This document shows, in pieces, positions 5,500 to 24,806 of a DNA stretch of 64,000 bases. Position numbers and translations under genes: made by a program. The stretch is from positions 2,496,001-2,560,000 of the forward strand of contig JAXHMG010000003.1 in NCBI GenBank assembly GCA_034521595.1, read 5' to 3'. The DNA is from Gemmatimonadota bacterium. Lineage in GTDB: Bacteria; Gemmatimonadota; Gemmatimonadetes; Longimicrobiales; Gaopeijiaceae. The notes beneath the pieces were generated by a model. The model was not told the DNA's origin. It searched no databases and saw only the letters and a program-made list of their open reading frames with translations. Numbering within the stretch: the stretch's first letter is position 1; every line of letters begins with the position of its first letter.

Positions 5500-5538
5500 G
5501 ACGGCCTCGGGGGACCGTAAGCGTCCTCCGAGGCCGTC
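5500..5538. terminator. GC-rich hairpin between convergent genes, probable bidirectional terminator
   Basis: GACGGCCTCGGGGGAC / GTCCTCCGAGGCCGTC inverted repeat between the SBP stop and the O-methyltransferase stop. Confidence 0.6.
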
Positions 5539-7503: not shown

Positions 7504-8105
7504 GCGTCGTCCCTCTCGTTCGGAACGTCCGCCACGGCTCCGTCGACCGCGGGCATCGGAAGGTGACTCGTGCCGGCCTCTGGATCCACGTTGTCTCGCA
7601 TGGTCTCCACTTGCTTGATGATGTGGCTCACGGCCTGGAGCAGGAGCAGGCCGAAGGACACCAGAATGAGCGCCTTGATGGGGTATCGGGGTAACCCGCC
7701 GGGGTCGGGAGACGTCTCTCCGATGGACCAGGAGTTACGCACCGCCGGGAAGGACAGCCACAACATGGCGATCGAGAACGGCACGAGACACACCACGGTG
7801 CCGACCAGGTCGATGATGGCCCGTGTCCGGGCGGAGAGCCGCTCGAACATGACGTCCACTCGCACATGGACGTCCTTGTTCAAGCCGTACGCGGCCCCCA
7901 TGAGAAAGATCACGCTGAACGCGTACCACTGGCCTTCCACCAGGGGCGTGAGGTTCATCGACATGCCCAGACCGCGCGAGAAATACCTCAAGATCGCGCT
8001 TGTGGCGCCGATGAGCACCATGACCAGCGTGAGCCAGCGAATCGTTACTCCGATCGCGTCGTTGAGGCCGTCGATGCCGGCGCTCAGCCTTCTCAGAATA
8101 AGCAT
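7500..8105 (-). CDS. TRAP transporter small permease DctQ
   Basis: Four TM segments, HVRVD and ETSPDPGGLP motifs; 4-bp overlap with dctM. Confidence 0.9.
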   Translation of the reverse strand: MLILRRLSAGIDGLNDAIGVTIRWLTLVMVLIGATSAILRYFSRGLGMSMNLTPLVEGQWYAFSVIFLMGAAYGLNKDVHVRVDVMFERLSARTRAIIDLVGTVVCLVPFSIAMLWLSFPAVRNSWSIGETSPDPGGLPRYPIKALILVSFGLLLLQAVSHIIKQVETMRDNVDPEAGTSHLPMPAVDGAVADVPNERDDA

Positions 8106-8150
8106 GCGCGGATGATGCATAGGGAGGGCGTCCAGGGCAACGGACACCGG

Positions 8151-9114: not shown

Positions 9115-9831
9115 TCACTCGGACGAACCGGCGTCCGTCTCGGTCGGGTCGTAGTCTTCGTCGGCTCCGTGCTTGATCGTGCGACCTTCCACGAGAAAGA
9201 CCACATCCTCGGCCAGGTTGGTCGCCAGATCCCCGGTTCGTTCGAGGTTCTGAGAGACGAGGAGAAGCTCCAGCGCACCGCTGATGCGCTTGGGGTCCTC
9301 CAGCATGTGCGTGACGAGGATGCGAAACATGGAGCGCCGTAGCTCGTCCACCTTGTCGTCCGTGAGGCACACGAGCCGAGCCGTCCCCGTGTTGCGAGCC
9401 ACGTACGCCGCGAGCGCGTCCGACACCATCTCGCGCGTCACGTCCACCATCTCCGCCAGCTCGCGCACTTCGGGGAGCGGGGGGGTGTCCGCCAACCGCT
9501 TCGCCGCCTTGGCGATGTTGAGCGCGTGGTCACCCATCCGCTCCAGGTCGTTGGAGAGCTTGTTGGTGGTGATGATCCGACGCAGATCGGTCGCCATCGG
9601 CTGATGGAGCGCGAGCAGCTCGACCACCTGCTCGTCGATCGCGACCTCGAGCTCGTCGATCCGGTCGTCGGTGCGCCTCGCATGCTCGACGACGTTCGGG
9701 TCCCGCTCGAGCACCGCCTTCGTGGCCGCCGCCAACGCCTCCTCGACGAGACCCGCCATCTCCATGAGGCGATCCTGAAGGGCGTCGAGCCGGCTGTGGA
9801 AATGCCGCTGGCTGGCCTGTGGCGTGCTCAA
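9115..9831 (-). CDS. phoU: Phosphate signalling protein PhoU
   Basis: [28 protein letters not shown] motifs; probable TTG start overlapping the pstB stop. Confidence 0.93.
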
Positions 9832-10610
9832 CCGAACCTCCCCGTGATGTAGGCTTCCGTCTGCTCCTCCTTCGGATTCGTGAAGATCGTCTCCGTCGGC
9901 CCGTACTCGACGAGATGTCCCATATACAGGAAGGCGGTATAGTCGGAGATCCGCGCCGCCTGCTGCATGTTGTGGGTGACGATGACGATCGTGTAATCCT
10001 TCTTGAGCTCGTAGATGAGTTCTTCTATCCGCTGCGTCGCGATGGGATCCAACGCCGAGGCCGGCTCGTCCATCAAGACGATCTCGGGCTTCACCGCGAG
10101 CGTGCGTGCGATGCACAACCGTTGTTGCTGGCCACCGGAGAGGGCATAGGCGGAATCCTGGAGCCGATCGTGAACCTCATCCCACAGCGCGCTCTGCTTC
10201 AGGGACGCCTCCACGAGCATGTCCAGGTCCCCTTCGTGCCCGTTCACCCGCGGACCGAACGCCACGTTGTCGAAGATGGACTTCGGGAAGGGATTCGGCT
10301 TCTGGAACACCATGCCGATGCGCCTTCGGACTTCGACGGGATCCACGTCGTCGCCGTACAGGTTCTGGCCGTGGAAGGTGACCGCACCCTCGACGCGAGC
10401 CGCGGGCACGAGATCGTTCATCCGGTTGAAGCACCGCAGAAGCGTGCTCTTGCCGCACCCGGACGGCCCGATGAGGGCCACGACCTGCCTGGAGGGAATC
10501 GTGAGCGACACGTCCTTCACGGCCTCGAGCTCACCGTAAAAGACGGAGAGCCCCTGCGCCTCGAGCGCGGGCACGCGCCCTCCGGTTTCGATATCGTAGA
10601 TCGTGGCCAT
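9828..10610 (-). CDS. pstB: Phosphate ABC transporter ATPase
   Basis: [44 protein letters not shown]. Confidence 0.97.
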
Positions 10611-10614
10611 GTCG

Positions 10615-11502
10615 TCAGTTGCGAGTCTGGTAGCGGTTCCGGAGGACGATCGCGACGGCGTTCATGCTGAGCAGGAGCAGCAGCAGGACGACGATTCCCG
10701 CGGCTGCGAGGGCGCGGAACTCGTCCTGTGGCCGGGACACCCAGTTGTAGATCTGGAGCGGTAACACGGTGAACCGATCCATCGGTCCCGCGGGCGTGAA
10801 GGCGAGGTACCCGACCGCGCCCACCATGATCAGCGGTGCCGTCTCCCCCACCGCCCGCGAGAGCGCCAGAATCGTTCCCGTGAGGATGCCGGGCATCGCG
10901 GACGGGAGCACCTGGGTCCGCACCACCTGCCAGCGGGTGGCGCCCAGACCATAAGCCGCCTCCCGGATCGTGCCGGGCACCGCCCGGATCGCCTCCTGCG
11001 CCGCCATGATGATGACGGGCATGATGAGGAGCGACAGCGTCAACGCGCCGGACAGGACGCTCCGGTCGAGCCGGAAGAAGCGCACGAACAGCGCCAAGCC
11101 CAGGATACCGTACACGATCGAGGGCACCCCCGCCAGGTTCGCTATGTTGGTCTGGATCGTGCGCGTGATCCAGTTCTGCGACGCGTACTCCTCGAGGTAG
11201 ATGGCCGCGGCAACCGACACCGGAAAGGAGATGAGGGCCGTGAGCGTGAGAATCCAGACCGACCCGGCGAGCGCCGCCTTGATGCCCGCCCGCTCGGGGA
11301 TCCGCGAGCCGAAGTTGACGAGGAAATCACCGTCGAGGCTCGGGAGCCCGTCGAGCGCGACGTCCGTCAGGAGCACACCGAGGGCGAGCACGCCGACCGC
11401 GGTGGCCGCGGCACACAGGCCCGCGAACAACACGCCGAGTCGTCGCCGACGACGACCCCGCGGCGTGGTCGCGCCACCGAAAGAGGGTCCGGGATCGCTC
11501 AC
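10615..11502 (-). CDS. pstA: Phosphate ABC transporter permease PstA
   Basis: [24 protein letters not shown] start overlapping the pstC stop. Confidence 0.95.
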
Positions 11503-12434
11503 TCGTACTCCTCCCGGAAGCGGGAAAGGACCCATTGGCTCAGGATGTTCATCGCGAGGGTGATGAGGAACAGCGTCATCCCCACGGCGAACAGGGTCTG
11601 GTAGACGATCGTCCCGCGCGGAGTGTCACCGAGGGACGCCTGGACGATATAGGCAGTCATGGTCTGGATCGATTCGAGCGGATTCAGCGTCATGTTGGGG
11701 AGATTCCCGGCGGCGATGGTCACCGCCATCGTCTCTCCGATGGCCCTCGAAACCGCGAGGATGAACGATGCGATGATCCCCGAAAGGGCCGCCGGGACCA
11801 CCACCCGGGTGGACACCTCGAGCTTGGTCGCTCCCAGCCCGTAGGCGCCGTGGCGCAGCGCCTCCGGCACCGCGCGGAGGGCGTCCTCGGAAAGCGAGGA
11901 GACGGTGGGAATGATCATGATCCCCACCACGATGCTCGCCGACGCGGCGTTGAACACGTCGGTGCCCGGAAACACGCTTCGGAGGAGCGGCGTGACGAAG
12001 GTCAGCGCGAAGTAGCCGTACACGACCGTGGGGATCCCGGCGAGGATCTCGAGGACCGGCTTCAAGACCTTCCGCAGCCCGGCGGTCGAGTACTCGCTCA
12101 GGAACACGGCGGTCAGCAGTCCGATCGGGAGCGCGATCGCGGCCGCGCCCCCGGCCACCATGAACGAGCCGGCCAGCAGCGGAAGGACGCCGAAATGCTT
12201 CTCCTGGAACATCGGCTCCCAGCGAGTCCCGGTGAAGAACTCGACGACCGAGACCTGCGTGAAGAACGCCACGGTCTCGCCCAACAGGACCGCGACCACG
12301 CCGATCGTCACCAGGGTGGACGCGGCGGCGCACGCGAAGAGCAGCGCTCCGATCATCCGCTCCCTGGTGTCGCGGCTGCGGCGGAAGCTTAGTCCCGCGC
12401 CGCCGTTCGCTTGCACTTCCGATGGCTCCTGCAC
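11499..12434 (-). CDS. pstC: Phosphate ABC transporter permease PstC
   Basis: [23 protein letters not shown] motifs. Confidence 0.95.
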
Positions 12435-12458: not shown

Positions 12459-13397
12459 TCAGCCGGAGGTCCCGGCGGCCTCACGAATGAGTCGGAGCTG
12501 CTCTTCGTACTCGACCGGCGACAGTGCGTGGTACCCGGTGGACGGAACGATCTCGGCGGCTTCCTGGAGGATGAACTCGGCGAACGCACGCACCTCGGGT
12601 CGCTCGAGCGCGGTATGTTGCACGTAGATGTAGAGCGGCCTCGCGAGCGGGGTGTAGGAGCCGTTTTCGATCGTCTCGTCCGACGGCGAGACACATCCCG
12701 AGCCATTATCGACGGCGACGAGCTCGAGGGCGTCCCGGTTCTCGGTGAAGTACGCATACCCGAAGTACCCGAGCGCGTACTCGTCGCCCGCGACCCCCTG
12801 TACGAGGATGTTGTCGTCCTCGCTGGCCTGGAAGTCGGCCCGGCTCGCGCCGCTCTCGCCGTTGATCGTCTCGGTGAAGTAGTCGAAGGTGCCCGAGTCG
12901 GTGCCGGGGCCGTACAGACGGATCTCCTCATCGGGCCACTCGGAGCGCACGTCACGCCAGGTCGTCACCGAGCTTCCGGGCTCCCAGATGCGTTGGAGCT
13001 CCTCCACCGTGAGGCATTCCACGAAATCGTTGGAGGGGTTCACGATCACCGAGAGCCCGTCCCAGCCGACGCGCAGCTCCGTCATCTCGATTCCGGCCTC
13101 CTCACAGGCTTCGCGCTCGTCCTCCGCGATGGGACGGGAAGCGTTCGTGAAATCGGTTTCTCCGGCGCAAAAGCGCTGGAACCCCCCGCCGGTTCCGGAG
13201 ACCCCGACGGTGACCCGCGCCCGTGGATTCGCGATCTGGAATTCTTCGGCCAGAGCCTCGGCGACCGGGAACACCGTGCTCGAGCCGTCGATGCGGATGT
13301 TGCCCTGGACGCCGGTACCGTCACCGGTCTCGCCTCCGCATGCGGCGAGGGAGAAAGCGGTGGCAACGCAGGCGAGAGCAATGGTGGACTTCGACAT
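12459..13397 (-). CDS. pstS: Phosphate-binding lipoprotein PstS
   Basis: LAAC lipobox, DGSSTVFP, SGTGGGF, GTDSGTFDYF, YTPLARPLYIY. Confidence 0.96.
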   Translation of the reverse strand: MSKSTIALACVATAFSLAACGGETGDGTGVQGNIRIDGSSTVFPVAEALAEEFQIANPRARVTVGVSGTGGGFQRFCAGETDFTNASRPIAEDEREACEEAGIEMTELRVGWDGLSVIVNPSNDFVECLTVEELQRIWEPGSSVTTWRDVRSEWPDEEIRLYGPGTDSGTFDYFTETINGESGASRADFQASEDDNILVQGVAGDEYALGYFGYAYFTENRDALELVAVDNGSGCVSPSDETIENGSYTPLARPLYIYVQHTALERPEVRAFAEFILQEAAEIVPSTGYHALSPVEYEEQLRLIREAAGTSG

Positions 13398-13448
13398 TCC
13401 GAACCGTCCTGAAGGAAGGAGCAGCGAGATGGGGATGGTGGCTGGCAT

Positions 13449-13502
13449 ACTTTAGGGCGAATCGACGTCAGAATGATAAAGGACCGGTAACGAAACCGTA
13501 AC
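13449..13502 (-). promoter_or_regulatory. Putative Pho box (GTTAC direct repeats, 11-bp period) and -10 element upstream of pstS
   Basis: Minus strand GTTACGGTTTC-GTTACCGGTCC-TTTAT, then TAAAGT at 13454-13449. OmpR/PhoB regulators bind 11-bp-period direct repeats. Confidence 0.65.
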
Positions 13503-13523
13503 GCCCCCATGCGCACGGACCAC

Positions 13524-15260
13524 TCAGGGCGCCGGCAACGTGAAGCGGATGGTGGTGCCGCGGCCGAGCTCGCTCTCCGCCTCGACGCTCCCTCCCATGG
13601 CGCCCACGAGGTGTTTCACGATGGCGAGCCCCAGCCCCGTGCCTCCCGCGTCGCGCGCACGGGAGGCGTCCGCCCGGTAGAAGCGCTCGAAGATCCTGGG
13701 CAGGACGCTCACGGGGATTCCCTCGCCATCGTCCGAGACGTCCACGGCCACGAGTCCCTCCGCCGCTGGGCGCACTCGGACGTGCACGGTCCCTCGCCCA
13801 CCGGTGTGGCGGATGGCGTTTTCGAAGAGGTTCCGGAACACCTGCGCCAAGCCTTGCGGGTCCGCGACCGCCACCGCCTCGCCGTCGACCTCGAAATCGA
13901 TCGCCGACGTTCCGGCCGCCGCCTCGACGACCGTCCACGTGTCTCGCGCCACCCGACCGATATCGACGTGTTCCGATCCCGCGCTCCACCCTCCGGACTC
14001 CAGCCGAGAAAGGTCCAGAAGGTCGTCTACGAGGTTCTGCAGGCGAACCGTGTTCGTGTGGATCGCTTCGAGGAAGCGTCGACGCACGTCTTCGGGCGGA
14101 TCGTCCTCGACGAGCGATTCCGCGTACCCGCGGATGGACGTCAACGGCGTCTTGATCTCGTGAGAAGCGTTGGCCACGAAATCACGACGTACCGTCTCGA
14201 GCCGACGGATCTCCGTGACGTCGAGCAGGGTGGTCACGGCTCCGCCGCGATCCAGAGCACGTGACGACACCAGCACGTGGCGTCCGGCCACCTCGATCTC
14301 CCGAGAAGGCACGTCGCCACGGAGTGAAGCCTCGAGCACCTCACGTAGCTCGCGGTGTCGCACGACCGCCCCAAGGGGGGGACGTTCGCTCGTGCCCGAC
14401 GGATCCGGCAAGCGCAACATGGCCCGTGCGGTGCGGTTCGTCCGCAGAAGACGCCCGTCGTCCGTGAGCGCGATGACCCCTTCCGCCATGCAGTCGATGA
14501 GCACCTGCATCTCGTCGCGTTCCTCGCCGAGCTCCGCGAGCCGCCCTCTGAGCTCGTCGCTGAGGCGGTTGAACGCGACGGCGACGTCGCGGAGCTCCGA
14601 GACCGGCCCCGCCCGCACGCTTCCGCTGAAATCGCCCCGGGCGAGACGCCGTGCGTGGTCCGCCAGCGCCACCAGGGGGCGGGCGAACAATCTGCTCAGG
14701 AGGTACGCCGCGGTGAGCGCCACCAGCATGGCGAGGAGCCCGGCCGCTGCAACCGCGCGTTGCACGCGGTCGACCGCCTGCTCCACCTCCGTGCGCGGAG
14801 CCGCGATCCGCAGAATCATCGGCTCGGTGTTCAGAGCGCCCAACGTCGCGGCGTAGAGAAGGGGCATTTCCACGGTGGCGCTCACGCGCTCGTCGAAGGC
14901 AACGTCTTCCTCGCCCTCGAGCACCGCGCGGACCTCCGGCCGCTGGCGATGACTCTCCATCTCGCCCAGGCGCCCGGGCTCCAGATACGACTCGCCGCGC
15001 ACGACGCCCGTGGTATCGATGATCGTCACGCGGTAGTCGATGCGCTCCGTGATCGCGCGGGCCAGAGCATCGGGATCCATGTCCCCGGACCGCGCCATGA
15101 GCCCCCGACCGAGGATGAGCTGCCGCTCGAGCTCGGCCCTGAAGGTCGCGCCGAGCTCCCGGTCGAGGCCCGTGCCCACGAGCACGAGCGTGAGGACGGT
15201 GAGCAGACCGACGACCCCGAAGAATCCGGCGAAGAGCACATGGTGGATACGGAGTCGCAT
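13524..15260 (-). CDS. phoR: Phosphate regulon sensor histidine kinase (HAMP-PAS-HisKA-HATPase)
   Basis: RRDFVANASHEIKTPLT H-box, NLFENAI, FERFYR, GGTGLGLAIVKH; two TM segments; adjacent to pst and phoB. Confidence 0.88.
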   Translation of the reverse strand: MRLRIHHVLFAGFFGVVGLLTVLTLVLVGTGLDRELGATFRAELERQLILGRGLMARSGDMDPDALARAITERIDYRVTIIDTTGVVRGESYLEPGRLGEMESHRQRPEVRAVLEGEEDVAFDERVSATVEMPLLYAATLGALNTEPMILRIAAPRTEVEQAVDRVQRAVAAAGLLAMLVALTAAYLLSRLFARPLVALADHARRLARGDFSGSVRAGPVSELRDVAVAFNRLSDELRGRLAELGEERDEMQVLIDCMAEGVIALTDDGRLLRTNRTARAMLRLPDPSGTSERPPLGAVVRHRELREVLEASLRGDVPSREIEVAGRHVLVSSRALDRGGAVTTLLDVTEIRRLETVRRDFVANASHEIKTPLTSIRGYAESLVEDDPPEDVRRRFLEAIHTNTVRLQNLVDDLLDLSRLESGGWSAGSEHVDIGRVARDTWTVVEAAAGTSAIDFEVDGEAVAVADPQGLAQVFRNLFENAIRHTGGRGTVHVRVRPAAEGLVAVDVSDDGEGIPVSVLPRIFERFYRADASRARDAGGTGLGLAIVKHLVGAMGGSVEAESELGRGTTIRFTLPAP

Positions 15261-15269
15261 CAGCCTCCG

Positions 15270-16007
15270 TTATTCCCTTCCTTCGGGAATATCGAGCCGA
15301 TATCCGAAGCCCCGGATCGTGTGAATCCATCCCCCGACCTCTCCGAGCTTGCTTCGGAGTCGCCGCACGTGCATGTCCACGGTCCGAGTCTGTATCCGCT
15401 CGGAGACGCCCGATTCCAGGCTCCACGCCTTCTCGAGGAGTTGCCGGCGGCTCTGCGTCTTCCCACGCCGTTCGAGAAGCGCCTGCAGGAGCCGGAACTC
15501 GGTGGGTGTCAGACTGAGCTCCGACCCGTCGAGGGACGCCTGATGCGCTCCGACGTCCACCCGGAGCGGACCCGCCCGCAGGACCCGGCCTCCCGACGTG
15601 ATGCCCGCTTCCCGAACCCGGCGAAGGATCGCCTGGACGCGGAGCACCAGCTCCCTCGGGCTGAACGGCTTCGTGAGGTAGTCGTCCGCACCGAGCTCCA
15701 GGCCGCTGATGCGGTCTTCTTGCTCGCGCTTGGCCGTCAGCACGAGGATCGGAATGTTCACCGTGCTCGGTTCGGACCTGAGCTGCTCCAGCACGGTGTC
15801 GCCGCTGAGTCCGGGAAGCATGCGATCCAACACCACCAGATCGGGGATCTCGCGACCCACCGCGTCGAGCGCCTCGGGTCCGTTTCCGGCGGTTTCCACC
15901 CGGAAGCCTTCCCGAGTGAGTTGGTACGCGATCAATGCCGCGATATCGTGCTCGTCTTCCACCACGAGCACCCGCGGCACCACCGTGGACTTCGGGGAAG
16001 CGTCCAT
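15270..16007 (-). CDS. phoB: OmpR/PhoB family response regulator
   Basis: Receiver domain (VEDE, LDRMLP, GADDYLTKPF) and winged helix (RTVDMHVRRLRSKL, IRGFGY); context with phoR and pst. Confidence 0.88.
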   Translation of the reverse strand: MDASPKSTVVPRVLVVEDEHDIAALIAYQLTREGFRVETAGNGPEALDAVGREIPDLVVLDRMLPGLSGDTVLEQLRSEPSTVNIPILVLTAKREQEDRISGLELGADDYLTKPFSPRELVLRVQAILRRVREAGITSGGRVLRAGPLRVDVGAHQASLDGSELSLTPTEFRLLQALLERRGKTQSRRQLLEKAWSLESGVSERIQTRTVDMHVRRLRSKLGEVGGWIHTIRGFGYRLDIPEGRE

Positions 16008-16087
16008 GGAATCTCTAGAAGGGTGTCGTCATGGGGTCGTCGACCGAGAACCGGTCCCGACCGGCCCCGCCGCAGCTCCACTCGCGG

Positions 16088-17320
16088 TCAGCCCGCCCGG
16101 ATCAGCTCCTCGACCTCTCCTTCCGTGAAGGTGTGGTCGGTCTGCTTGGCCGCCTCGAAGATTCGCTTCACGAGCTCGTCGTCGCGCGGATCGTATCCGT
16201 GTTCGCGCAGCCAATACTTCACGTTCGACAGGCCCGACATCGGGCCGATCTCGATGTGCTGCTTGCGCCCGACCATGGACGCCGGAATCGCCGAGTAGAT
16301 CCGATCCGCGAGCCATGCGTCGCCCTTCTCCTCGGCCTTGATGATCGCGGCCGCGTGCACGCCCGTTCCGGTCCGAAAGGCGTCGTGGCCCACGACCGGA
16401 TACGAATGCGAGAGCGGAACCTGGCACGCCTCCGACGTGAGCCCGCAGTAGTCGGGAAGCACCGACAGGTCGGCATCGTGAACGCCGAGCAGCTGCAGGT
16501 TGACGAGCAGGAGGTCCATCTCGGTGTTGCCGCACCGTTCCCCGATCCCGAGGGCCGTGCCGTGCACCCGCGTCGCACCGGCCTCGATGGCCGCGAGCGC
16601 GTTCGCCAGACCGAAGCCCCGGTCGCGGTGCCCGTGCCAGTCGACCTCGACATCTTCCCCGGACGGCTTCACGATCTCCTCGATCACGAAGCGCACCAGC
16701 GCCCGTGTCCCATCGGGCGTGGCATGTCCGACCGTATCCGCGATACAGAGACGGCGCGCTCCCCAGGCGATCGCGTTTCCGTAGAGCGTCTTCAGGACAT
16801 CCGGATTGGCGCGCGTCGTGTCTTCGGTGACCATCAGCACCGGAAGCCCTTCGGAGACCGCGAAGGTGACCGCTTCCTCGCTGGTTTCCAGCATCCGGTC
16901 CAGCGTCCAGCTCTCGGCGTACTGGCGGATCGGAGAGCTCCCGATGAAGGTGCACGCCTCGATGGGGATGCCGACCTTCTGGCTGATCTCGACGATCGGC
17001 TTCACGTCGGCGACCACCGTGCGCGCGGCACAGTTGGGGCGAATGGAGAGCCCGGCGTCGACGATCTCTTGCGCCAGAACGGTCACCGCTTCGACCGCGC
17101 GCGGCCCGGCACCGGGCAACCCGATATCCGCCGTGTGGATGCCGAGCTGATCCATCATGTGGAGGAGCCGAACCTTGTCGTCCAGCGGAGGGTCCACGAC
17201 CGACGGGTTCTGGAGGCCGTCCCGCAGGGTCTCGTCGTCCAACTCCACCTTCTCGACGGCCGACCAGTCGAATGTCGCGCCGGTCTCGTTCCAGTCGTAG
17301 ATGAGTTCCCGCTCTTCCAT
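16088..17320 (-). CDS. LeuA/homocitrate synthase family (DRE-TIM) acyl-CoA condensing enzyme without C-terminal regulatory domain
   Basis: DETLRDG, HGHRD, GIGERCGN, AFRTGTGVHAAA; about 410 aa. Confidence 0.85.
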   Translation of the reverse strand: MEERELIYDWNETGATFDWSAVEKVELDDETLRDGLQNPSVVDPPLDDKVRLLHMMDQLGIHTADIGLPGAGPRAVEAVTVLAQEIVDAGLSIRPNCAARTVVADVKPIVEISQKVGIPIEACTFIGSSPIRQYAESWTLDRMLETSEEAVTFAVSEGLPVLMVTEDTTRANPDVLKTLYGNAIAWGARRLCIADTVGHATPDGTRALVRFVIEEIVKPSGEDVEVDWHGHRDRGFGLANALAAIEAGATRVHGTALGIGERCGNTEMDLLLVNLQLLGVHDADLSVLPDYCGLTSEACQVPLSHSYPVVGHDAFRTGTGVHAAAIIKAEEKGDAWLADRIYSAIPASMVGRKQHIEIGPMSGLSNVKYWLREHGYDPRDDELVKRIFEAAKQTDHTFTEGEVEELIRAG

Positions 17321-17415
17321 GCTCACCCTCGGCATCGGCGGTGGTCTGGATCCTCTCCATAAACATAGAGGGGGAGTGGCGACAGGTCACCGTGCGGGGG
17401 TCCCGACGCCCGACG

Positions 17416-18030
17416 TCAGTCCACACCGGCCGGAAGGTAAGGACGGGGTCGCTCATCGTAGTAGCGGAAGACCTTGTGACCGCCGCCCCGTACCAACACG
17501 TCCTTGAAGAGCTGCGCTTCGAACAGCCCTTCGCGACCCTCGACCTCGAAGAGGGTCCAGCAGTCCGTGAGCACCCGAAAGGTCGCGTACTCCCGGGTGT
17601 CGCCACGGCACTGCACCGTTCCGTACGTCAGCTCCAGATCGGCGAACATCGGCAGGAGTCGGTGGATGCTACGGCGGTCACGCAACTCGATGTTCTTCCA
17701 CGCGAAGTCGAGGGGAAAGCCGACCTCGGGCCGTGAAGCCGGGAGCTCCGGCCACACCACTTCGTTGTGTTCACGCTCGGTGAGACGGAACCCACCGAGC
17801 TCCGCCGTATCGCCGTCCACCAGAGCGCTCAAGACCCGCCGGCCGAGACCGTCGAGGGTGCCCGTCGCGCCCTCGAACGGGGCGTGTGCCTCCGCCCTTC
17901 CGGCCGGGTCGGTTGCGGGCTGGCGGCCATCTCCTTCACCACAACCGCCCACCACCACCGTGAGCGCGACGACCCACGTGGAGACCCCTCTCGATCGCCG
18001 CGTCGCCCTGGCTACCTTCTGCTGGCTCAC
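17416..18030 (-). CDS. Hypothetical lipoprotein
   Basis: GTG start with GAGGAGG RBS; basic N-region, hydrophobic stretch, VGGC lipobox-like. Confidence 0.7.
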   Translation of the reverse strand: MSQQKVARATRRSRGVSTWVVALTVVVGGCGEGDGRQPATDPAGRAEAHAPFEGATGTLDGLGRRVLSALVDGDTAELGGFRLTEREHNEVVWPELPASRPEVGFPLDFAWKNIELRDRRSIHRLLPMFADLELTYGTVQCRGDTREYATFRVLTDCWTLFEVEGREGLFEAQLFKDVLVRGGGHKVFRYYDERPRPYLPAGVD

Positions 18031-18150
18031 TTCACTACCTCCTCTGTCGGCGAAGGAGCCGGCGCCCTCGCACACCAGCCTGCGTCCGAAGCACGGAGCA
18101 GGAGCGCGGGTGTGCCTGGCATGCGAGGGGCACCGAGCACCGTCAATGGC

Positions 18151-19731
18151 TCAGTTCAACGCCTGCGTCGTCCAACCCTGGTACCAGGGCGTGGCCTCGT
18201 CCGGATCGACGCCACCGATGAAGTCGACGGCCTCGAAGAACCCGTCGTCCGGCGGGGTGGCGAAGCCATTCAGCGCGGGCGAGCCGGCTTCCGGCCGGAA
18301 GTCCGGCGAGGCACGGTCGAACGGTGCCGCGAGCATCGGATCGATGCCGAAGCGGTTGTTCCAAGCCGCGTTCGTGAAGAACGCATCCTCGTCGATCCCG
18401 TCGTCGTCGTTCGCGATATCGAGAGCATTCAACCCGACGATCGAGTTCCGGAAGGCGAGGCCGTTGTCGATCGACTCCTGATTGTCGACGTCCAGGCCCA
18501 CCGTGCCGAAGCCCACGACGATGGCGTTGCGGATGTCACCGGCGGCGCCTCGCCGAAGCACCATGCCCTGGGTCGATTCACCCGCCGCTCCTCCCGCACC
18601 GTCCACGCCCTTCCCGACGAGCGTCACGTTATAGAGCGTCGGGTCGGTGAAGGGCGTCGCCCCGAAGTCGTCCGAGTTGCCGTCGACCTCGAAGCCGTTG
18701 TCGGCGTTGTCCGGATCCTGCTGCGCGATCCAGAACTGACCGCGTCCCTGCCAGCCCGTCGAGTAGTCGAACGAGTCGTCCGAGATGCCGGTGGACAGAA
18801 GGTACTTGGCGTCCACGGTTCCGCCGAACCACTCGAAGCCGTCGTCCGAGCCGTAGTGGGTCTGCAGGTGGTGCAGCTCCGTTCCGGAACCCACGCCGTT
18901 GAGCGTCAACGCGTTCAGCTCGTTCCCGAAGCTCACCTCGAACCCGGCGAACTCGATGCGGGTGTAAACCATGCGCCCGCTGTCGTCATCGAGCACGTCA
19001 CCGCCGTACGGGCCGGACGAGCCCTCGCCCACGCATTCGTCCGCCGGGAAGTTGCAGAGGGAGCGACCGTTCAACACGACTCCCCCCCAGTCTCCACGGC
19101 TGCGCTCCCCTTCCGGGTTCTCGGAGGTGAAGACGACCGGTGCGTCGGCCGTGCCGTTGGAGAAGAGCTTCCCACCCTTCCGCACGATGAGCGCGGACGG
19201 GGTGATGTCCACGTCCCCGAGAAGCAGGGTTCCCGCCGGAACGGTCAGGCTTGCGCCGTCGACCACCGTCACGATTCCCTGGATGAAGTAGGTGGTGTCG
19301 GCGGAGAGCTCCCGATCACCGGTGATCTCACCGGTGAGGGCGGCCTCCCGGACGTCCGGGTCGAGCGCGCCGACGGCCGGGTCGCTCGGATCCGAGCTCC
19401 CGCTCGAGTTCTTCGCGATCACCCGGTAGTTGTACGTCGTCCCGGCGCTGACGCCGTCGTCCGTGTATTCGGTTTCCGTGACGTCCGTCGCGATATCGCT
19501 GAAGCTCGCGCCGGACGTCGCGGCCTGGCGCTGCACGTCGTAGGCGTCCGCGCCGTTCACGGCGGACCATGAGACGACGAGCGCGTTTCCGGACTGGCTG
19601 ACCGACGAGATGGTCGGCGCCGCCGGCGCGGTGTCCACACCGGTCGGATCCGGGTCGTCGTCACCACAGCCGGCCAGCGCCACCACGGCGAGGGTGGCCA
19701 CATGGGGAATCATATTTCTTTTACGGAACAT
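18151..19731 (-). CDS. Acidic lipoprotein with fibronectin type III domain and right-handed beta-helix-like domain
   Basis: LAGC lipobox; FN3 pattern (VSWSAV...YDVQR...YNYRVIAKN); GDWGGVVL, DDDSG, DDGFEWFGG, DDSFD, NGFEVD repeats. Confidence 0.8.
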   Translation of the reverse strand: MFRKRNMIPHVATLAVVALAGCGDDDPDPTGVDTAPAAPTISSVSQSGNALVVSWSAVNGADAYDVQRQAATSGASFSDIATDVTETEYTDDGVSAGTTYNYRVIAKNSSGSSDPSDPAVGALDPDVREAALTGEITGDRELSADTTYFIQGIVTVVDGASLTVPAGTLLLGDVDITPSALIVRKGGKLFSNGTADAPVVFTSENPEGERSRGDWGGVVLNGRSLCNFPADECVGEGSSGPYGGDVLDDDSGRMVYTRIEFAGFEVSFGNELNALTLNGVGSGTELHHLQTHYGSDDGFEWFGGTVDAKYLLSTGISDDSFDYSTGWQGRGQFWIAQQDPDNADNGFEVDGNSDDFGATPFTDPTLYNVTLVGKGVDGAGGAAGESTQGMVLRRGAAGDIRNAIVVGFGTVGLDVDNQESIDNGLAFRNSIVGLNALDIANDDDGIDEDAFFTNAAWNNRFGIDPMLAAPFDRASPDFRPEAGSPALNGFATPPDDGFFEAVDFIGGVDPDEATPWYQGWTTQALN

Positions 19732-19841
19732 CCTGTTGATCTCCTGTTATTGGATGTTGCTCGGGCCGTGAAGCCCACGACCCGCCTGCATGGCACCTTC
19801 GCCCGAACGGCTCCGGCACCGGTGGGGAGCCCTCGCCGACG

Positions 19842-22655
19842 TCATCGGCCGCTCCCCCAACTGAGCGAGAGCGACAAGGACCGTCCGACCTCGTACGATC
19901 GGAGCGTCCCTCCGCCCTGCGTGAATTCCACTTGATTGCCGAGCAGCCGGTTGGCCGAAAGCTTGGCGCTCCAGCCCGACGCGATCGGCCACTGCAGCAC
20001 CGCGTCCAACTGACCGCGCGCTTCTTCGTAGATCTCGGGCGAGGCCTGTGCCCCTACCGCGTCGATGCGACGACCGAATCGGTTGAAGAGGATGCTCGCC
20101 GACGCACCCCGATCGTCGTCCCAGGTGACGCCCAGGTTCAGGACGTACGGTGACTGGCCCTGGAGCCCGCGGCTCTTGGGATCCACACCGATCTCGGTGG
20201 GTCCGGTCCCGGGGACGTAGGCGTCGACGGTGCTCCGCGTGGTCACGTCCGATACGACGAGCGTCGTGTTGGCGTTGACCGAAAGAGATCGGAGGCCTTC
20301 CGAGAGGAACCCGAGATCCGACCTCGCCTCCACCTCCACTCCGTAATTGTCGGCTTCCCGGGCATTCACCCAGGTCTTCATCAACTCGCTGCTCGGAAGG
20401 ACGAAGGTTTCGATGGGACTGGAGAACTCCTTGTAGAAGCCGCTCACCGCGACCACCGACTGCGGCCCGCCGAACCACTCCCATCGCAGATCGAAATTCG
20501 AGATCCGGGTGCCCTCGAGCTGTGGGTTCCCGATGACCAGGAAGCCTCCCGCATAATCCGCGAAGGAAAACGGGGCGAGCTCACGAAGCTCCGCCCTGGC
20601 CAGAGTGCGCGACGCGCTCGCGCGCAGGTTCATCGTTTCGGACAGCGACAGCGTCGCGTTGATCGCCGGCAGGAGATCGGTCGACTCGATGTCCGCCCCC
20701 TCCACCGGAGGAAGCCCGGTATCCCAGAGGTCCTTCGGAGACACGGCCTGGCTCGTCCGCTCGACGCGCGCCCCTCCCGAGAAACGAAGTCCCGGGACGG
20801 GCTCGAGCTCGGCCATGAGGTAGGCCGCCTCGATCGTCTGCCGGGCGTCGTAGTTGTCCGTACGGAACGTGGCTTCGCGAATCTCGAAGCCGTCCGGGGC
20901 GATGTAGGGGCTCGAGGCGCCGAACAGCTCGTCGGGCGCCAGGGTGCGAACATCGTTCCCGATCGTGCCACCGGACTGCGGACGGAAGCGGAAGCGCCGT
21001 GTGTAGGCTTCCCGGTCCTTGTGCTCGACGCTCGAGCCCGCCGAGAGCGACGCGGGCAGCCCTGCGAGCTCGAACGGCAGTCGCAGCGAGGCCGCCCCAT
21101 TCCACCCGGAATCGACCATGTCCTGGTGAAACACCGAGCCGCTCTGGATGAAGTCGTCCCAGTAGAACTGCCCGTCGAACTCCCGGTATAGCACTTCCCG
21201 CGTGCTCGGTTCGTACCTGTTCGCCCGCGTGAGGGCGCCACGCCACTTGAACGTCGCATCGCTCAAGAAACGGAGGAGGTGCTCCCCTTCGAGCTGGCTG
21301 TTCAGGAGCGACTGTCCGAGGTACTGGACGCGGGAGTTCCACTGATCGGTGTTGGAGTCCAGATTGAAGCCGGTCAACACCCGTGACACGTCGTCCGTGA
21401 GGCGGTTATAGACGGTCTGGAGCTTGATCTGGTCACCCGCCCGGGGTTGGAAGGCGACGTTCGCCAGTGCGCCCAGGCTGATCGAGTGCTCTCCGATCTC
21501 TCCGGTGTAGTCGACTACCGGGTCGTCCACGCCGGATGTCGAGAAGACCCGCTCCACGAGATTCCGGCGAACGCTTTGACTCGAGGAGTAGTTCACGGAA
21601 GTGATGAACCCGAGGCGCCGGTCACCACCGAGGTCGATGTCGTCACCGAAGGTGGCGCCGAGACCGAAGTTGGGCGGAAGGCTGCGCTCGGTGGGTCCCC
21701 AGCCACCTTCGAATCCTCTCCCGATCTCCTGGAGCTCGGTGGACGAGAAGTTGGTCGGCGTGACCTGCACGTCTCTCGCAATGCCCGCCGGAAGACCACG
21801 GGTCCCGTCATCGAACCCGGTGAGGTCGAGGTCGCCACCCCGGTATCCGAGACCTTCCTCGAACGTGGCCGTGGAGTTCCACCCACCCGAGACGCTCACC
21901 GAGAAGATCCGGTTCGCGGGAAAGTCGCGCGTCCTCAGCTGAACGAGGCCGCCCGCTTGGTCTCCGGACTGGTCGGGGGAGTAGCTCTTGGAGGTGACGA
22001 TGCTCTGCAAGAGTCCCGAAGGGATCACGTCGAGCGGAATCGCATTCTTGTCCGGAACCGGTGAGGCGAGGGGAGCTCCGTTGAGCGTGGTCGCGCTGTA
22101 TCGCCCTCCGAGCCCGCGCACGTGCGCGAACTTCCCATCCACGACCGACAACCCGGGAACTCGACGCAACGCCGCCCCGGCGTCCCCATCGGGCGTACGG
22201 GCCATCTGCTCGGATCCGATGGCGTCGGAGACGACCGCCGAGCGCCGACGCTCGGACATGAGCGCGGTCGTGCTTCCCCGCTCCGCCCGCGAAGTCACGA
22301 CGACGCCTTCGACATCCACCGCCCGGGATTCGAGCGTCACGTCCAGGACCACGGTCTCGTCCCGGGTAACCTCCACGTCCGTGACCGTCTTCGTCCCGAA
22401 CCCGATGCGCTCTACGTGGACCTCGTGGATCCCCGCGGGCACGTCGCGTAGCACGTACCGACCGTCGACCGAGGAAAGCGCCCCGATGGTGCCCTCTCCC
22501 ACGAAGACCTGCGCGCTCGCCAGGGGCTCGGCCGTTTGCGCGCTGATGACGCGCCCGACGATGCGCCCCGTCTGTGCCTCGGCCGCAGCGGGCAGCCCGA
22601 GGAGGACGATGGCTACCAACAGGCCTTTGATCCACCTTCGCTTCATATCGTTCAT
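19842..22655 (-). CDS. TonB-dependent receptor with N-terminal carboxypeptidase-regulatory-like domain
   Basis: Signal peptide, plug region (LRRVPGLSV...VRGLGGRY...LDVIPS), beta-barrel motifs (LLPAINA, GNPQL, GQSPY); GAGGAG RBS. Confidence 0.93.
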   Translation of the reverse strand: MNDMKRRWIKGLLVAIVLLGLPAAAEAQTGRIVGRVISAQTAEPLASAQVFVGEGTIGALSSVDGRYVLRDVPAGIHEVHVERIGFGTKTVTDVEVTRDETVVLDVTLESRAVDVEGVVVTSRAERGSTTALMSERRRSAVVSDAIGSEQMARTPDGDAGAALRRVPGLSVVDGKFAHVRGLGGRYSATTLNGAPLASPVPDKNAIPLDVIPSGLLQSIVTSKSYSPDQSGDQAGGLVQLRTRDFPANRIFSVSVSGGWNSTATFEEGLGYRGGDLDLTGFDDGTRGLPAGIARDVQVTPTNFSSTELQEIGRGFEGGWGPTERSLPPNFGLGATFGDDIDLGGDRRLGFITSVNYSSSQSVRRNLVERVFSTSGVDDPVVDYTGEIGEHSISLGALANVAFQPRAGDQIKLQTVYNRLTDDVSRVLTGFNLDSNTDQWNSRVQYLGQSLLNSQLEGEHLLRFLSDATFKWRGALTRANRYEPSTREVLYREFDGQFYWDDFIQSGSVFHQDMVDSGWNGAASLRLPFELAGLPASLSAGSSVEHKDREAYTRRFRFRPQSGGTIGNDVRTLAPDELFGASSPYIAPDGFEIREATFRTDNYDARQTIEAAYLMAELEPVPGLRFSGGARVERTSQAVSPKDLWDTGLPPVEGADIESTDLLPAINATLSLSETMNLRASASRTLARAELRELAPFSFADYAGGFLVIGNPQLEGTRISNFDLRWEWFGGPQSVVAVSGFYKEFSSPIETFVLPSSELMKTWVNAREADNYGVEVEARSDLGFLSEGLRSLSVNANTTLVVSDVTTRSTVDAYVPGTGPTEIGVDPKSRGLQGQSPYVLNLGVTWDDDRGASASILFNRFGRRIDAVGAQASPEIYEEARGQLDAVLQWPIASGWSAKLSANRLLGNQVEFTQGGGTLRSYEVGRSLSLSLSWGSGR

Positions 22656-22728
22656 TGCTCCTCACCGTTGCCTGAGTGGAACGGGCCAACTCGCTCAAGG
22701 AGCCCCGCGCTCCCTTTTGCATGATCGA

Positions 22729-22783
22729 AGCTTAGAGGGGGCGGGTAACGGCGAAGGCTCGGGATCCGTAACAGTGGGGTAAC
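22729..22783 (-). promoter_or_regulatory. Putative Pho box and -10 element upstream of the TonB-dependent receptor
   Basis: GTTAC at 22783-22779 and 22772-22768 (11-bp period), a third copy at 22749-22745, TAAGCT at 22734-22729; same layout as at pstS. Confidence 0.6.
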
Positions 22784-22820
22784 GCGAAGCGAGGGTTGGC
22801 GCGGCGAGGGGAAAACGACG

Positions 22821-22855
22821 AAAAAGGGGCGCCCCTCCGGATGGAGGAGCGCCCC
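22821..22855 (-). terminator. Intrinsic terminator after the nucleotidyltransferase gene
   Basis: Minus strand GGGGCGCTCCTCC-ATCC-GGAGGGGCGCCCC followed by TTTTT. Confidence 0.75.
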
Positions 22856-22898
22856 GACCTGCCGAGCGTCGCCGAATCGTCGCGCGGATTGCGGCCCG

Positions 22899-23897
22899 CT
22901 ATCCCCCGTCCACCAGGGAGTCGTCGGTCACGGAGAGTGTCGCGCTGACGTCCCGAACGACGGCCCGCGCGCCCAGGATGGAGTCGTGGAGGGCCGCCCG
23001 CTCCAGCCGCGCGTCCACTCCCACGACACTGTCCCGGACCGTGGAGTCGGTCAGGTGGGTGCCCCGTTCGAGCGTGACGTTCGGCCCGATGGTACCGCCC
23101 CGCACGACCACGCCTTCCTCGAGCCTCACGGGCTCGACGATCTCGGCACCTTCCACCGTCGCGCCGGAATCCACGCCCCCGCGCGTGGTTGCCACCAGAT
23201 GCGCGTTCGTCTCCAGCAAGGTCTCCGGCTTTCCGGCATCCCACCAACCGCGCACGGGCGCCGTGAGAATCTTGCTCCCGTGGTCCACCATGTACTGGAA
23301 GGCGTCGGTCAGATAGAACTCACCCGACGGTCCGGGGGGCGAGTCGAGGGCGTGTCGAATCCCTTCGAAGAGCAATTCGTGCTCCCGGATGTGATAGAGG
23401 CCGATGTTCGCGAGCCTGGACACGGGCTCGGAAGGCTTCTCCACGATTCGGGTCATCGTGCCGTCGTCGTCCGTGACGATCACCCCGAAGCGCTGATAGT
23501 CCTCGACCTCTTTGGCCCAGATGACCCCCGCGTACTTGGGATCCAGCGACCGAGCCAACTCGTAGTCCACCTCGAGCACCGCATCGGGAAACACGATCAG
23601 CAGCTCGTCGTCGATGAACGGTTCGGCGAGGCCCACGGCTCCGGCGGTCCCGTCCTGAACTTCCTGCAGGACGTAGTGCCCCCGTATTTGCGGGTACTCC
23701 GCCTTGATCCACTCTTCGATGGTGTCGCGAAGGTAGCCGACGACGAAGACCATCTCCTCGACACCCACGTCGATCAGGTCGTCGAGGATATAGGCCAGAA
23801 CCGGCTTCCCGGCGACCTTGAGGAGCGGCTTGGGGGTATGGTGCGTGTGCGGGCGGAGGCGGGTGCCTTTCCCGGCGAGGGGGATGACGGCTTTCAT
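22899..23897 (-). CDS. Sugar-phosphate nucleotidyltransferase (glucose-1-phosphate thymidylyltransferase-like, long form)
   Basis: AGKGTRLRPHT...PKPL, EKP, WWDAG, C-terminal left-handed beta-helix repeats. Confidence 0.9.
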   Translation of the reverse strand: MKAVIPLAGKGTRLRPHTHHTPKPLLKVAGKPVLAYILDDLIDVGVEEMVFVVGYLRDTIEEWIKAEYPQIRGHYVLQEVQDGTAGAVGLAEPFIDDELLIVFPDAVLEVDYELARSLDPKYAGVIWAKEVEDYQRFGVIVTDDDGTMTRIVEKPSEPVSRLANIGLYHIREHELLFEGIRHALDSPPGPSGEFYLTDAFQYMVDHGSKILTAPVRGWWDAGKPETLLETNAHLVATTRGGVDSGATVEGAEIVEPVRLEEGVVVRGGTIGPNVTLERGTHLTDSTVRDSVVGVDARLERAALHDSILGARAVVRDVSATLSVTDDSLVDGG

Positions 23898-23975
23898 GGG
23901 CTCCGGTCTTGGCGGTACGCGAAGGTTGGCGCCACACTATACGCAACCGAAGCGTCGTTGTCAGGGAGAAGTGCG

Positions 23976-24806
23976 ATGAGACCCAGAGGGAAGGCGGCAT
24001 CCGTAGCGTTGGCCGGCTGGCTGCTGTTGGGCGGGTGCGCGGGATCGACCGCCGGGGGGAGCGAGGCCACGGGCGGCAACGCACCCGCACCGCGCACCGA
24101 CCCGGCGCTGGAGGAACCGAACGTCTACGAGGTCCCGGTCGAAGCCTTCGCCCCCGACGAGGAGCGGCCCGCGTTCATCCAAGTCCGCGGAGGCGCGAGT
24201 GTGACGCTCCCCGCCGACCGAGCCAGCGTGACGTTCGCCGTGGAGACGCGCGCCGTCACCGCCACCGACGCGGCCGCTGAAAACGCGAACCTCATGGATG
24301 CCGTGCTCCGGGCCGTTCGCGAGGCGGGCTTCGCGGATCTTACCATCGAGACGTTCGGATACACGTTGCAGCCGGACTACATCGTACGGGACGACCGCTC
24401 GAGGGAGATCGAAGGGTATACCTCGTTGAACAACGTGCGGGCGCGCGTGCACGACATGGAATCCATCGGATCAGTCGTCGACGCGGCCATCGCGGCGGGT
24501 GCCAACCGGATCGCTTCCATCGATTTCGAAGCTTCCGACACCGAGGCCGCACGTTCCGAGGCGCTGGCCGAAGCCGTCCGGAGCGCCCGCTCACAGGCCC
24601 GTGCCATCGCCGCTTCGCTCGGGTACGAGCTCGGGCCGGTCCTGGAAGTGCGGGGGGGCGCCGACCGCTCGGACCCGCCGGGCATCGAGACCATGCTCAT
24701 GCGTAATGAAACCGCCTCGACACCGATCGAGGCGGGAACCCGTGCCGTGAGCGCGAACGTGACCGTGCGCTTCGCGCTCGGCAGCGCCCTCCCCGGCGGA
24801 CAGTGA
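23976..24806 (+). CDS. SIMPL (DUF541) domain lipoprotein
   Basis: LGGC lipobox; VRGGASV.LPADRA.V, LQPDY, AIAAGANRI, PIEAG...VTVRF pattern. Confidence 0.85.
   Translation: MRPRGKAASVALAGWLLLGGCAGSTAGGSEATGGNAPAPRTDPALEEPNVYEVPVEAFAPDEERPAFIQVRGGASVTLPADRASVTFAVETRAVTATDAAAENANLMDAVLRAVREAGFADLTIETFGYTLQPDYIVRDDRSREIEGYTSLNNVRARVHDMESIGSVVDAAIAAGANRIASIDFEASDTEAARSEALAEAVRSARSQARAIAASLGYELGPVLEVRGGADRSDPPGIETMLMRNETASTPIEAGTRAVSANVTVRFALGSALPGGQ

Follow-up and report, generated by a model that had tools for sequence, protein, structure and literature searches.

The window analysed here is a stretch of 64,000 nucleotides (nt) from Gemmatimonadota bacterium GCA_034521595.1 (contig JAXHMG010000003.1, positions 2,496,001-2,560,000), whose genome comprises 3,489,967 bases and is 93% complete. 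On its minus strand, the window encodes a TonB-dependent receptor, a 526-amino acid (aa) beta-helix lipoprotein and a small lipoprotein (sLP), close to the phosphate regulatory and transport genes phoBR and pstSCAB-phoU. We consider it probable, at roughly 60%, that these genes constitute a PhoB-controlled outer-membrane uptake module of the kind represented by ElpS, FII, and BT4056. This assessment rests on the gene content of the locus, the fold of the lipoprotein, the conservation of the receptor-lipoprotein pair, and a cis-element that the module shares with pstS and that is itself conserved. The original prediction for this DNA had viewed the genes as an outer-membrane phosphorus-scavenging module, a view that is supported by the shared repeat, the conservation, the neighboring genes, and the published induction of apparent homologues.

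The receptor and its two lipoproteins

The receptor, a 937-aa protein encoded by the open reading frame (ORF) at 19842-22655, consists of a signal peptide, an N-terminal CarboxypepD_reg domain, a Plug domain, and a 22-strand-type barrel (Pfam PF13620, PF07715, and PF00593), in agreement with its initial designation as a TonB-dependent receptor. An STN signalling domain was not found in the Pfam search. The best curated model, TonB-Xanth-Caul (TIGR01782), aligned end-to-end with a score of 253.2 bits (248.6 bits in the genome search), below the cut-off of 310, and the SusC model (TIGR04056) matched the N-terminal domain only, with 24.8 bits against a cut-off of 368.25, so that the receptor fails the SusC model.

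The 526-aa lipoprotein (18151-19731) starts with a lipobox (…VVALAGC), the cysteine of which (Cys22) is conserved in two homologue alignments and is followed by the acidic stretch GDDDPD. In Bacteroidota, an acidic stretch after the lipidated cysteine is a surface-export signal. Next comes an FN3 spacer, matched by the Pfam fn3 family at residues 39-119 and spanning approximately residues 32-126 according to structural matches, whereas about 400 C-terminal residues belong to Beta_helix_4 (PF28492), a "pectate-lyase like beta helix" family. The latter assignment comes from a precomputed label (PF28492.1), carried by the window protein and by all 120 homologues listed, and from the ESM Atlas, in which the aligned part is named PF28492 and matches six clusters from several phyla with template-modelling (TM) scores of 0.92-0.95. 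The mature protein is strongly acidic, with an isoelectric point (pI) of 4.05 and 81 acidic versus 23 basic residues, among them 59 Asp. The lipoprotein nature, the FN3 domain, the acidity, and the Asp-rich motifs DDDSG, DDGFE, DDSFD, and NGFEVD, which start at residues 248, 296, 318, and 345, respectively, had all been recognized originally and stand.

So does the beta-helix-like character of the repeats. Structure prediction of the lipoprotein alone with AlphaFold, from a 16-row alignment, gave a confident model (predicted local distance difference test, pLDDT, 88.6), in which residues 127 to ~500 form a right-handed beta-helix. Fold comparisons were made with VIA-align in place of Foldseek, whose TM scores were poor on the two-domain model owing to domain orientation. 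The closest matches were the AlgE4 epimerase (Z 23.2) and Pel9A (1ru4; Z 23.0, root-mean-square deviation of 3.3 Å over 290 aligned residues, 17% identity), accompanied by phage tailspikes and, at Z 20-23, by AlgG, PL6 alginate lyase (Z 21.5), and chondroitinase B. Sequence searches against solved structures in the PDB returned FN3 matches only for the whole lipoprotein and none for the beta-helix profile, and searches of Pfam and NCBIfam matched no lyase or hydrolase family. Neither lipoprotein of the locus has a SusD match in Pfam, as had been claimed for the partner lipoprotein from the outset.

A 12-row alignment covering Gemmatimonadota, Bacteroides, Flavobacterium, an alphaproteobacterium, Poribacteria, and Myxococcota, at 35-64% overall identity, contains about 20 invariant positions, including (in window numbering) W215, G216, G217, E236, R258, N273, Q290, D296, D297, E300, D318, D319, D322, E348, D350, and R393. 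The carboxylates among these form a ladder, D296 D297 E300 / D318 D319 D322 / E348 D350, built from three motifs of the D-D-x-F-[D/E] type that lie 22-25 residues apart. Because successive rungs of the model each have one of these motifs at the beginning of a short strand, we infer that they stack into a single acidic stripe.

The third component, sLP, corresponds to the second uncharacterised lipoprotein of the original prediction and lies within an ORF open from 18075 to 17416 with the lipobox …VGGC. Translation probably begins with the GTG at 18030, preceded by a GGAGG, which yields a 204-aa protein (17416-18030) with the lipidated cysteine at position 30. No match was found in Pfam or NCBIfam. 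The model of sLP, from a 32-row alignment, has a pLDDT of about 98 over residues 50-200 and shows helices packed on a curved sheet; its best fold matches are NTF2-like or cystatin-like and modest (Z 9.3 to 5.4), with ESM Atlas TM scores of 0.37-0.38 to SnoaL/DUF4864/MlaC clusters. The sLP cluster was found in 36 of the 98 loci compared (see below), 19 of them in the cross-phylum set of 78 (Gemmatimonadota, Acidobacteriota, Poribacteria, and a few others). We take sLP to be a conserved accessory protein of the receptor-lipoprotein pair, from an unnamed family that, judging from the model, may be NTF2-like. A 190-aa lipoprotein encoded 3' of the beta-helix gene in five Bacteroidota loci was considered as a relative and ruled out, the profile comparison giving a probability of 1%. 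Complex prediction for receptor residues 115-937 and sLP residues 45-204, both supplied as alignments, yielded a score of 0.00 and a mark of 0.32, which is evidence neither way. Homologues of the receptor, the 526-aa lipoprotein, and sLP are each numerous, and the three are thus far more than chance ORFs.

A candidate Pho box and the layout of the locus

The putative Pho box of the original prediction exists as a sequence feature, namely, the direct repeat GTTAC-N6-GTTAC at 22768-22783 on the minus strand, with an 11-bp period, 112 nt 5' of the receptor ATG; a third GTTAC (22745-22749) follows 23 nt on. On both strands of the genome, the exact repeat occurs only twice, before the receptor gene and directly 5' of pstS (13487-13502, minus strand). 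The relaxed form, GTKAC-N6-GTKAC, has 12 matches in the genome, of which only three lie within 130 nt 5' of a gene start: those at pstS, at the receptor gene, and at a gene for a phosphate-selective porin of the Porin_O_P family (351 aa; G000:C3:1055878-1056996), where GTGAC-N6-GTGAC stands 47 nt before the start. This is the only phosphate porin gene of the genome, and it is found in locus L129 at 342-1397.

The element is conserved in the phylum. The first 26 Gemmatimonadota loci examined hold 33 copies of the relaxed repeat in 406,947 bases, and all 46 hold 60 copies in 803,344 bases, compared with a single copy of the reversed word that served as a composition control. The other spacings from 3 to 10 occur 1-11 times each in the 46 loci; a spacing of 17 occurs 22 times, matching the expectation from three-unit sites. 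Of the 46 loci, 26 have a relaxed box within 250 nt 5' of the receptor gene, in the spacer that separates this gene from the lipoprotein gene, or at both places, with the 5' location seen in 13 of the first 26 and 5 of the further 20 loci and the spacer location in 5 and 7, respectively. Further copies in these loci precede pstS-type, porin, and PiT genes. We therefore take GTKAC-N6-GTKAC to be the candidate Pho box of the phylum Gemmatimonadota, an assignment based on sequence. The cis-element makes a chance association of the pair with phosphate genes unlikely.

Loci with the box between the two genes include those with distant copies of the lipoprotein at 33-38% identity (L138, L139, L141, L145, L146, L147, and L149) as well as L036, L038, L039, L043, and L047. 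This location suggests that, in such loci, the lipoprotein is regulated apart from the receptor, as reported for elpS versus cc0171 in Caulobacter.

In the direction of transcription, the order on the minus strand is an NTP-transferase gene (22899-23897), a hairpin, a spacer, the genes for the receptor, the 526-aa lipoprotein, and sLP, an HMGL-like gene, phoB (15270-16007), phoR (13524-15260), pstS (12459-13448), pstC (11499-12434), pstA (10615-11535), pstB (9828-10610), and phoU (about 9115-9800). The co-orientation of the module with phoBR-pstSCAB-phoU is accordingly as originally described. The hairpin, located 3' of the NTP-transferase gene at 22826-22855, resembles an intrinsic terminator, with 13 pairs followed by a T run, and as such would isolate the receptor promoter region; the spacer 5' of the receptor gene measures 243 nt. 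No riboswitch or other Rfam family was matched at 13000-24000 of the window, that is, no competing control element. The gap between the receptor and lipoprotein genes is 110 nt, and the intergenic spacers across the module genes are 80-120 nt, so that the genes may not form a single operon. The PhoB protein of the window has PhoB TIGR02154 as its best NCBIfam model, at 229.9 bits and under the cut-off of 296. The pst operon is the only one found in the genome, and for this reason we put the chance that a random gene would lie within 10 kb of it at under about 1%.

The module does not lie "directly" upstream of phoBR, as had been stated, because the HMGL-like gene (16088-17335, 415 aa) intervenes between sLP and phoB. 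The best models for its product are 2-isopropylmalate or homocitrate synthase, with scores far under the cut-offs, and no LeuA regulatory domain was seen in it. The gene accompanies phoB in six related loci (L031, L032, L039, L046, L048, and L050), and in L039, the receptor gene points away from it while phoB comes next after it. The HMGL-like gene goes with phoB rather than with the receptor and is probably not part of the module.

Two further features of the phosphate gene cluster were observed. The listed pstS ORF begins 17 codons ahead of a typical lipoprotein signal (MSKSTIALACVATAFSLAAC); the real start is probably an internal ATG near 13397, in which case the leader behind the Pho box would be longer. 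Just downstream of phoU, there is a set of genes for a tripartite ATP-independent periplasmic (TRAP) transporter, DctP-like (4120-5475, plus strand), DctM-like (6199-7503, minus strand), and DctQ-like (7500-8147, minus strand), with an O-methyltransferase-like gene (5537-6199) in their midst, all assigned through their translations and the clustering of related loci. DctQ and DctM genes likewise lie 3' of the pst operon in L031, L046, and L050.

Phyletic spread and relation to described receptor-lipoprotein pairs

A phmmer search of 1.84 billion representative sequences with the lipoprotein retrieved 26,849 proteins at E <= 1e-3, of which 3,294 reached E <= 1e-30, counts that are inflated by FN3 repeats. 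Many of the matches hold two to four copies of the beta-helix domain. In Gemmatimonadota, Beta_helix_4 was also seen as two or three tandem copies within one frame of 1,147 or 1,598 aa (G060:C28:2354-6250 and G045:C40:16524-19097), and elsewhere, in giant proteins that reach 5,597 aa and contain dozens of matched stretches, mostly FN3. A cultured relative, Gaopeijia maritima, has a homologue that is 61% identical. The lipoprotein has a match in 29 of 41 genomes of the order to which the window belongs, and the domain profile (E <= 1e-20) in 57 of 151 sampled genomes of the phylum, tallies that include one or two unpublished genomes. The genome of the window contains a single full copy. A weak, partial match to the beta-helix profile (E 2.7e-11, positions 34-147) at G000:C3:2207021-2207359, within a 723-aa frame, may be a distant beta-helix relative.

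To survey the neighborhoods, we compared 20 loci from the order, 78 cross-phylum loci obtained with the domain profile (from the best 80 of the 634 stretches confirmed among 641 candidates), and 20 loci from other Gemmatimonadota genera. Genes were called with an ORF caller that filters by GC content at third codon positions and trims starts, a crude procedure that missed the lipoprotein in 9 of 98 loci, and were clustered by all-against-all BLASTP. The beta-helix lipoprotein cluster is represented in 89 of the 98 loci and a single receptor cluster in 82. The lipoprotein gene is paired with a co-oriented receptor gene in 19 of the 20 loci from the order; in the cross-phylum set, in which the lipoprotein was called in 70 of 78 loci, 54 loci have a co-oriented receptor from that cluster no more than two genes away.

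The next most frequent clusters after sLP are an OmpR-type regulator (27 of 98 loci) and a histidine kinase (22), followed by PstC/A (11), PstS (10), TonB (6), PhoU (5), and PiT with a PhoU_div partner (5); Ppx, the phosphate-selective porin, a Na/Pi cotransporter, and ExbB/ExbD recur as well. Altogether, pho and pst genes are the commonest neighbors of the pair in several phyla. They are present in 14 of the 20 loci of the order, four of the others being cut by contig ends (L035, L040, L047, and L049). Among the 20 further Gemmatimonadota loci, 11 contain clear pho, pst, PiT, or Ppx genes, not counting three with a partial regulator match only. In the cross-phylum set, phosphate-specific genes occur in 14 loci, a PhoBR-like pair in 25, and either of these in 29. 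Consistent with a phosphate role, PhoB was the best NCBIfam model for 20 of 20 regulators encoded beside the pair, although only those in L095, L097, and L111 scored above the cut-off; for the kinases, among the matches listed (7 of 16), PnpS was best and phoR_proteo second or third, all under the cut-offs. In Poribacteria (L056, L058, L061, L062, L065, and L066), the receptor, the beta-helix lipoprotein, and, except in L061, sLP are followed by a TonB gene; upstream, there is a divergent gene for a 186-201-aa membrane protein without a Pfam family, and no pho or pst genes lie in the stretch.

These features place the locus among the ElpS, FII, and BT4056 receptor-lipoprotein pairs, of which it is the Gemmatimonadota, FN3-bearing, three-gene form. 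In Caulobacter crescentus, ElpS (CC0170) is an approximately 50-kDa lipoprotein, produced on starvation for inorganic phosphate (Pi), exposed at the surface and subsequently released, and encoded next to the receptor CC0171; its release accompanies higher alkaline phosphatase activity in supernatants, and homologues were reported from Proteobacteria to Bacteroides, including Shewanella (PMC2996285). ElpS is said to stimulate extracellular phosphatase activity without being itself a phosphatase (PMC2996285; PMC11208175), and, according to Billini et al., the PhoB regulon of Caulobacter includes various TonB receptors as well as the type II secretion system (T2SS) responsible for ElpS release (PMC11208175). 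The window shares with this system the adjacency of genes for a lipoprotein and a TonB-dependent receptor. However, ElpS is encoded beside a T2SS cluster and is cleaved and released, whereas no T2SS genes were seen beside the window module; in the proteobacterial loci L095, L097, and L116, the lipoprotein gene precedes the receptor gene, the reverse of the order in the window; and the FN3 spacer and sLP are not described for ElpS in the available portions of these papers.

A similar arrangement exists in Flavobacterium johnsoniae, where the receptor Fjoh_0545 and the pectin-lyase-fold protein Fjoh_0546 (FII) are encoded in a phoBR cluster and are among the most Pi-induced genes, with log2 changes of 8.0 and 9.9 on Pi depletion; ElpS shares 31-36% identity with FI, FII, and FIII (Lidbury et al., ISME J 2021, PMC8115612). 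As in the window, a receptor gene is followed by that of a pectin-lyase-fold lipoprotein, close to phoB and phoR. The Flavobacterium and Paenimyroides loci L100 and L125 contain a glycosyltransferase (PF04101) gene, phoR, phoB, the receptor gene, and the Beta_helix_4 lipoprotein gene, an order equivalent to Fjoh_0541-0546. Their PF28492 lipoproteins are 40-42% identical to the window domain but, at 387-390 aa, lack FN3, and sLP is missing, whereas the window has both; furthermore, phoBR is divergent and upstream in the flavobacterial loci but downstream and co-oriented in the window.

In Bacteroides, a 2023 preprint proposed that BT4056 is an outward-facing "lid" for the non-SusC transporter BT4055, reported that the two are adjacent in 621 genera (mostly of Bacteroidota, with 394, and Proteobacteria, with 171), and related BT4056 to Fjoh_0546 (40%) and, distantly, to ElpS; the AlphaFold-Multimer model of the two proteins has few confident contacts (10.1101/2023.03.17.533168). 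Same-strand proximity and membership of the pectin-lyase superfamily are common to that pair and ours, whereas the available portion of the preprint names neither a third component nor a Pho box, and the window has sLP and the candidate box. Pi-starvation induction and surface exposure of the window proteins would follow by analogy with these apparent homologues.

More general parallels exist with SusC/SusD and BtuB/BtuG, in which a surface lipoprotein captures the ligand for a TonB barrel, and the CarboxypepD_reg domain of the window receptor is a SusC-like trait; however, SusD has a helical fold and BtuG is a propeller, in contrast to the beta-helix of the window lipoprotein. Ca2+-dependent pectate lyases and alginate epimerases, represented by Pel9A (1ru4) and AlgE4 (2pyg), share with the latter a right-handed parallel beta-helix of comparable size (Z 23 over 275-290 aligned residues) and acidic residues on consecutive rungs, but the identity is 12-17%, no sequence match exists in Pfam or PDB, and the context in the window is that of probable Pho-regulated uptake as opposed to a pectin or alginate locus.

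Proposed mechanism, alternatives, and significance

In the mechanism that we propose, PhoB would bind, at low phosphate, to GTTAC-N6-GTTAC before the receptor gene and thereby switch on the genes for the receptor, the beta-helix lipoprotein, and sLP. The beta-helix lipoprotein would be anchored by its lipid at the cell surface and held out on the FN3 spacer, with a groove lined by the invariant carboxylate ladder and probably occupied by Ca2+ or a different cation. At this site, it would capture, and perhaps trim, a phosphorus-bearing substrate whose size or scarcity prevents uptake through porins and hand it over to the dedicated receptor for import with TonB energy, with sLP acting as an NTF2-like accessory subunit. 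Periplasmic phosphatases and PstSCAB would complete the uptake; the genome has PhoD- and PhoA-type genes, and PhoX was not found in it (at 93% completeness).

Several observations weigh against this reading. No box, with up to one mismatch, precedes the phoD- or phoA-type genes of the genome, which implies either a very small regulon under this motif or an incomplete motif model, and 20 of the 46 Gemmatimonadota loci have an exact box at neither of the two promoters, some being cut by contig ends and some having versions with one mismatch. In Caulobacter, CC0171 was reported to be constitutive, and deletion of cc0171 left ElpS production intact (PMC2996285). A protein as acidic as the window lipoprotein would repel phosphate polyanions unless cations bridged the two, such bridging being pure conjecture on our part. 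No pho or pst gene lies within the available stretch of 49 of the 78 cross-phylum loci, including all seven from Poribacteria, or in L037 and L044 of the same order, which have room on both sides. Finally, we refer to ElpS, Fjoh_0546, and BT4056 as apparent homologues because we base identity with this family on the Pfam label, fold, receptor adjacency, and synteny that they have in common, as opposed to direct alignment; Bacteroides thetaiotaomicron and F. johnsoniae were not among the best 120 matches obtained from the Bacteroides ilei and Flavobacterium homologues, all of those listed being PF28492 proteins.

The proposed mechanism leaves room for a different role of the lipoprotein, and it is possible, if doubtful, that this protein is chiefly an enzyme. 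It would then depend on cations and act at the cell surface, as a hydrolase, lyase, or phosphoesterase, on a phosphorylated polymer (teichoic-acid-like polymers, phosphoglycans, polyphosphate, nucleic acid, or metal-phytate), and the receptor would import the cleavage products; the two readings differ only in the role of the lipoprotein. That about 20 residues are invariant across phyla at 35-64% identity would be expected of an active or metal site more than of a binding lid, and an enzymatic or metal-centred site must therefore be considered seriously. The nearest folds are lyases and epimerases that act on polyanions, and the phosphatase activity that accompanies ElpS release points in the same direction. 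A shared fold, however, shows no function; the catalytic residues of the lyases cannot be mapped at identities of 7-17%, the sequence matches neither a lyase or hydrolase family nor a solved structure, and the available portions of the published descriptions mention no activity of a purified member.

The same carboxylates could serve a metal instead of phosphorus. Import by the pair of Ca2+, Fe3+, or another cation or chelate required by PhoD-/PhoX-type phosphatases would explain why ElpS raises phosphatase activity, and the low pI, the 59 Asp, the ordered invariant carboxylates, the presence of a PhoD-type gene, and the classical role of TonB-dependent receptors in the import of metal chelates all fit. 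We nevertheless find this improbable: the genes that recur beside the pair are pho, pst, PiT, porin, Ppx, and TonB-ExbBD, not those for siderophores, Fur-type, or other metal regulators, and the F. johnsoniae genes were reported to be repressed under Fe and N limitation (PMC8115612). The window also contains no Escherichia coli-type Fur box at up to three mismatches, a weak argument given that this consensus derives from a different phylum.

That the pair takes up a glycan or another nutrient and lies near phoBR-pst for reasons unrelated to phosphate, the repeat being due to chance or unrelated, is very improbable. The 49 cross-phylum loci devoid of pho and pst neighbors and the fold, which is that of polysaccharide-active enzymes, would agree with it, as would the plant cell-wall targets suggested by Lidbury et al. 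(PMC8115612). It is contradicted by the position of the only two exact repeats of the genome at the pstS and receptor promoters, the ratio of 60 matches to 1 for the composition-matched control, the conservation of the element at the same promoters across the phylum, the third, relaxed copy before the phosphate porin gene, and the lack of glycoside hydrolases and sugar transporters among the annotated recurrent neighbor clusters. We regard as extremely improbable that the receptor transduces a phosphate-stress signal, a role once raised for CC0171, instead of acting as a transporter: its additional N-terminal domain is CarboxypepD_reg with no STN/FecR-type extension found, no anti-sigma/extracytoplasmic-function sigma pair is among the recurrent neighbors, and deletion of cc0171 did not stop ElpS (PMC2996285).

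Within the PhoB-controlled uptake reading, a more specific and rather unlikely version can be formulated, in which the Beta_helix_4 lipoprotein is a cation-mediated phosphorus capture device of a novel type. The D-D-x-F-[D/E] motifs of three to four rungs, at a spacing of ~4.8 Å, would line up Ca2+ (or Fe3+) ions in a row to grip, and possibly hydrolyse, metal-bridged phosphate, such as Ca-phytate, polyphosphate, or even the surface of a calcium or iron phosphate mineral; the released complex would then pass via the receptor, with the hitherto undescribed NTF2-like lipoprotein as an obligatory third subunit in Gemmatimonadota, Acidobacteriota, and Poribacteria.

In the two models studied, the outer-membrane proteins with the strongest induction by phosphate starvation include the ElpS-type lipoprotein and its receptor, whose genes adjoin each other in hundreds of genera; the available portions of the published descriptions of the pair name no substrate or activity. 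The present analysis gives evidence that the phosphate link of the pair reaches Gemmatimonadota and Acidobacteriota, supplies a list of invariant residues as mutation targets, and adds a conserved third component, sLP, which those portions do not mention. It also provides a sharply defined candidate Pho box, GTKAC-N6-GTKAC, as a tool for mapping Pho regulons in this little-studied phylum. If the lipoprotein is indeed a capture device, it would represent a third bacterial route of phosphorus acquisition, beside Pst/Pit and secreted phosphatases, in hundreds of genera.

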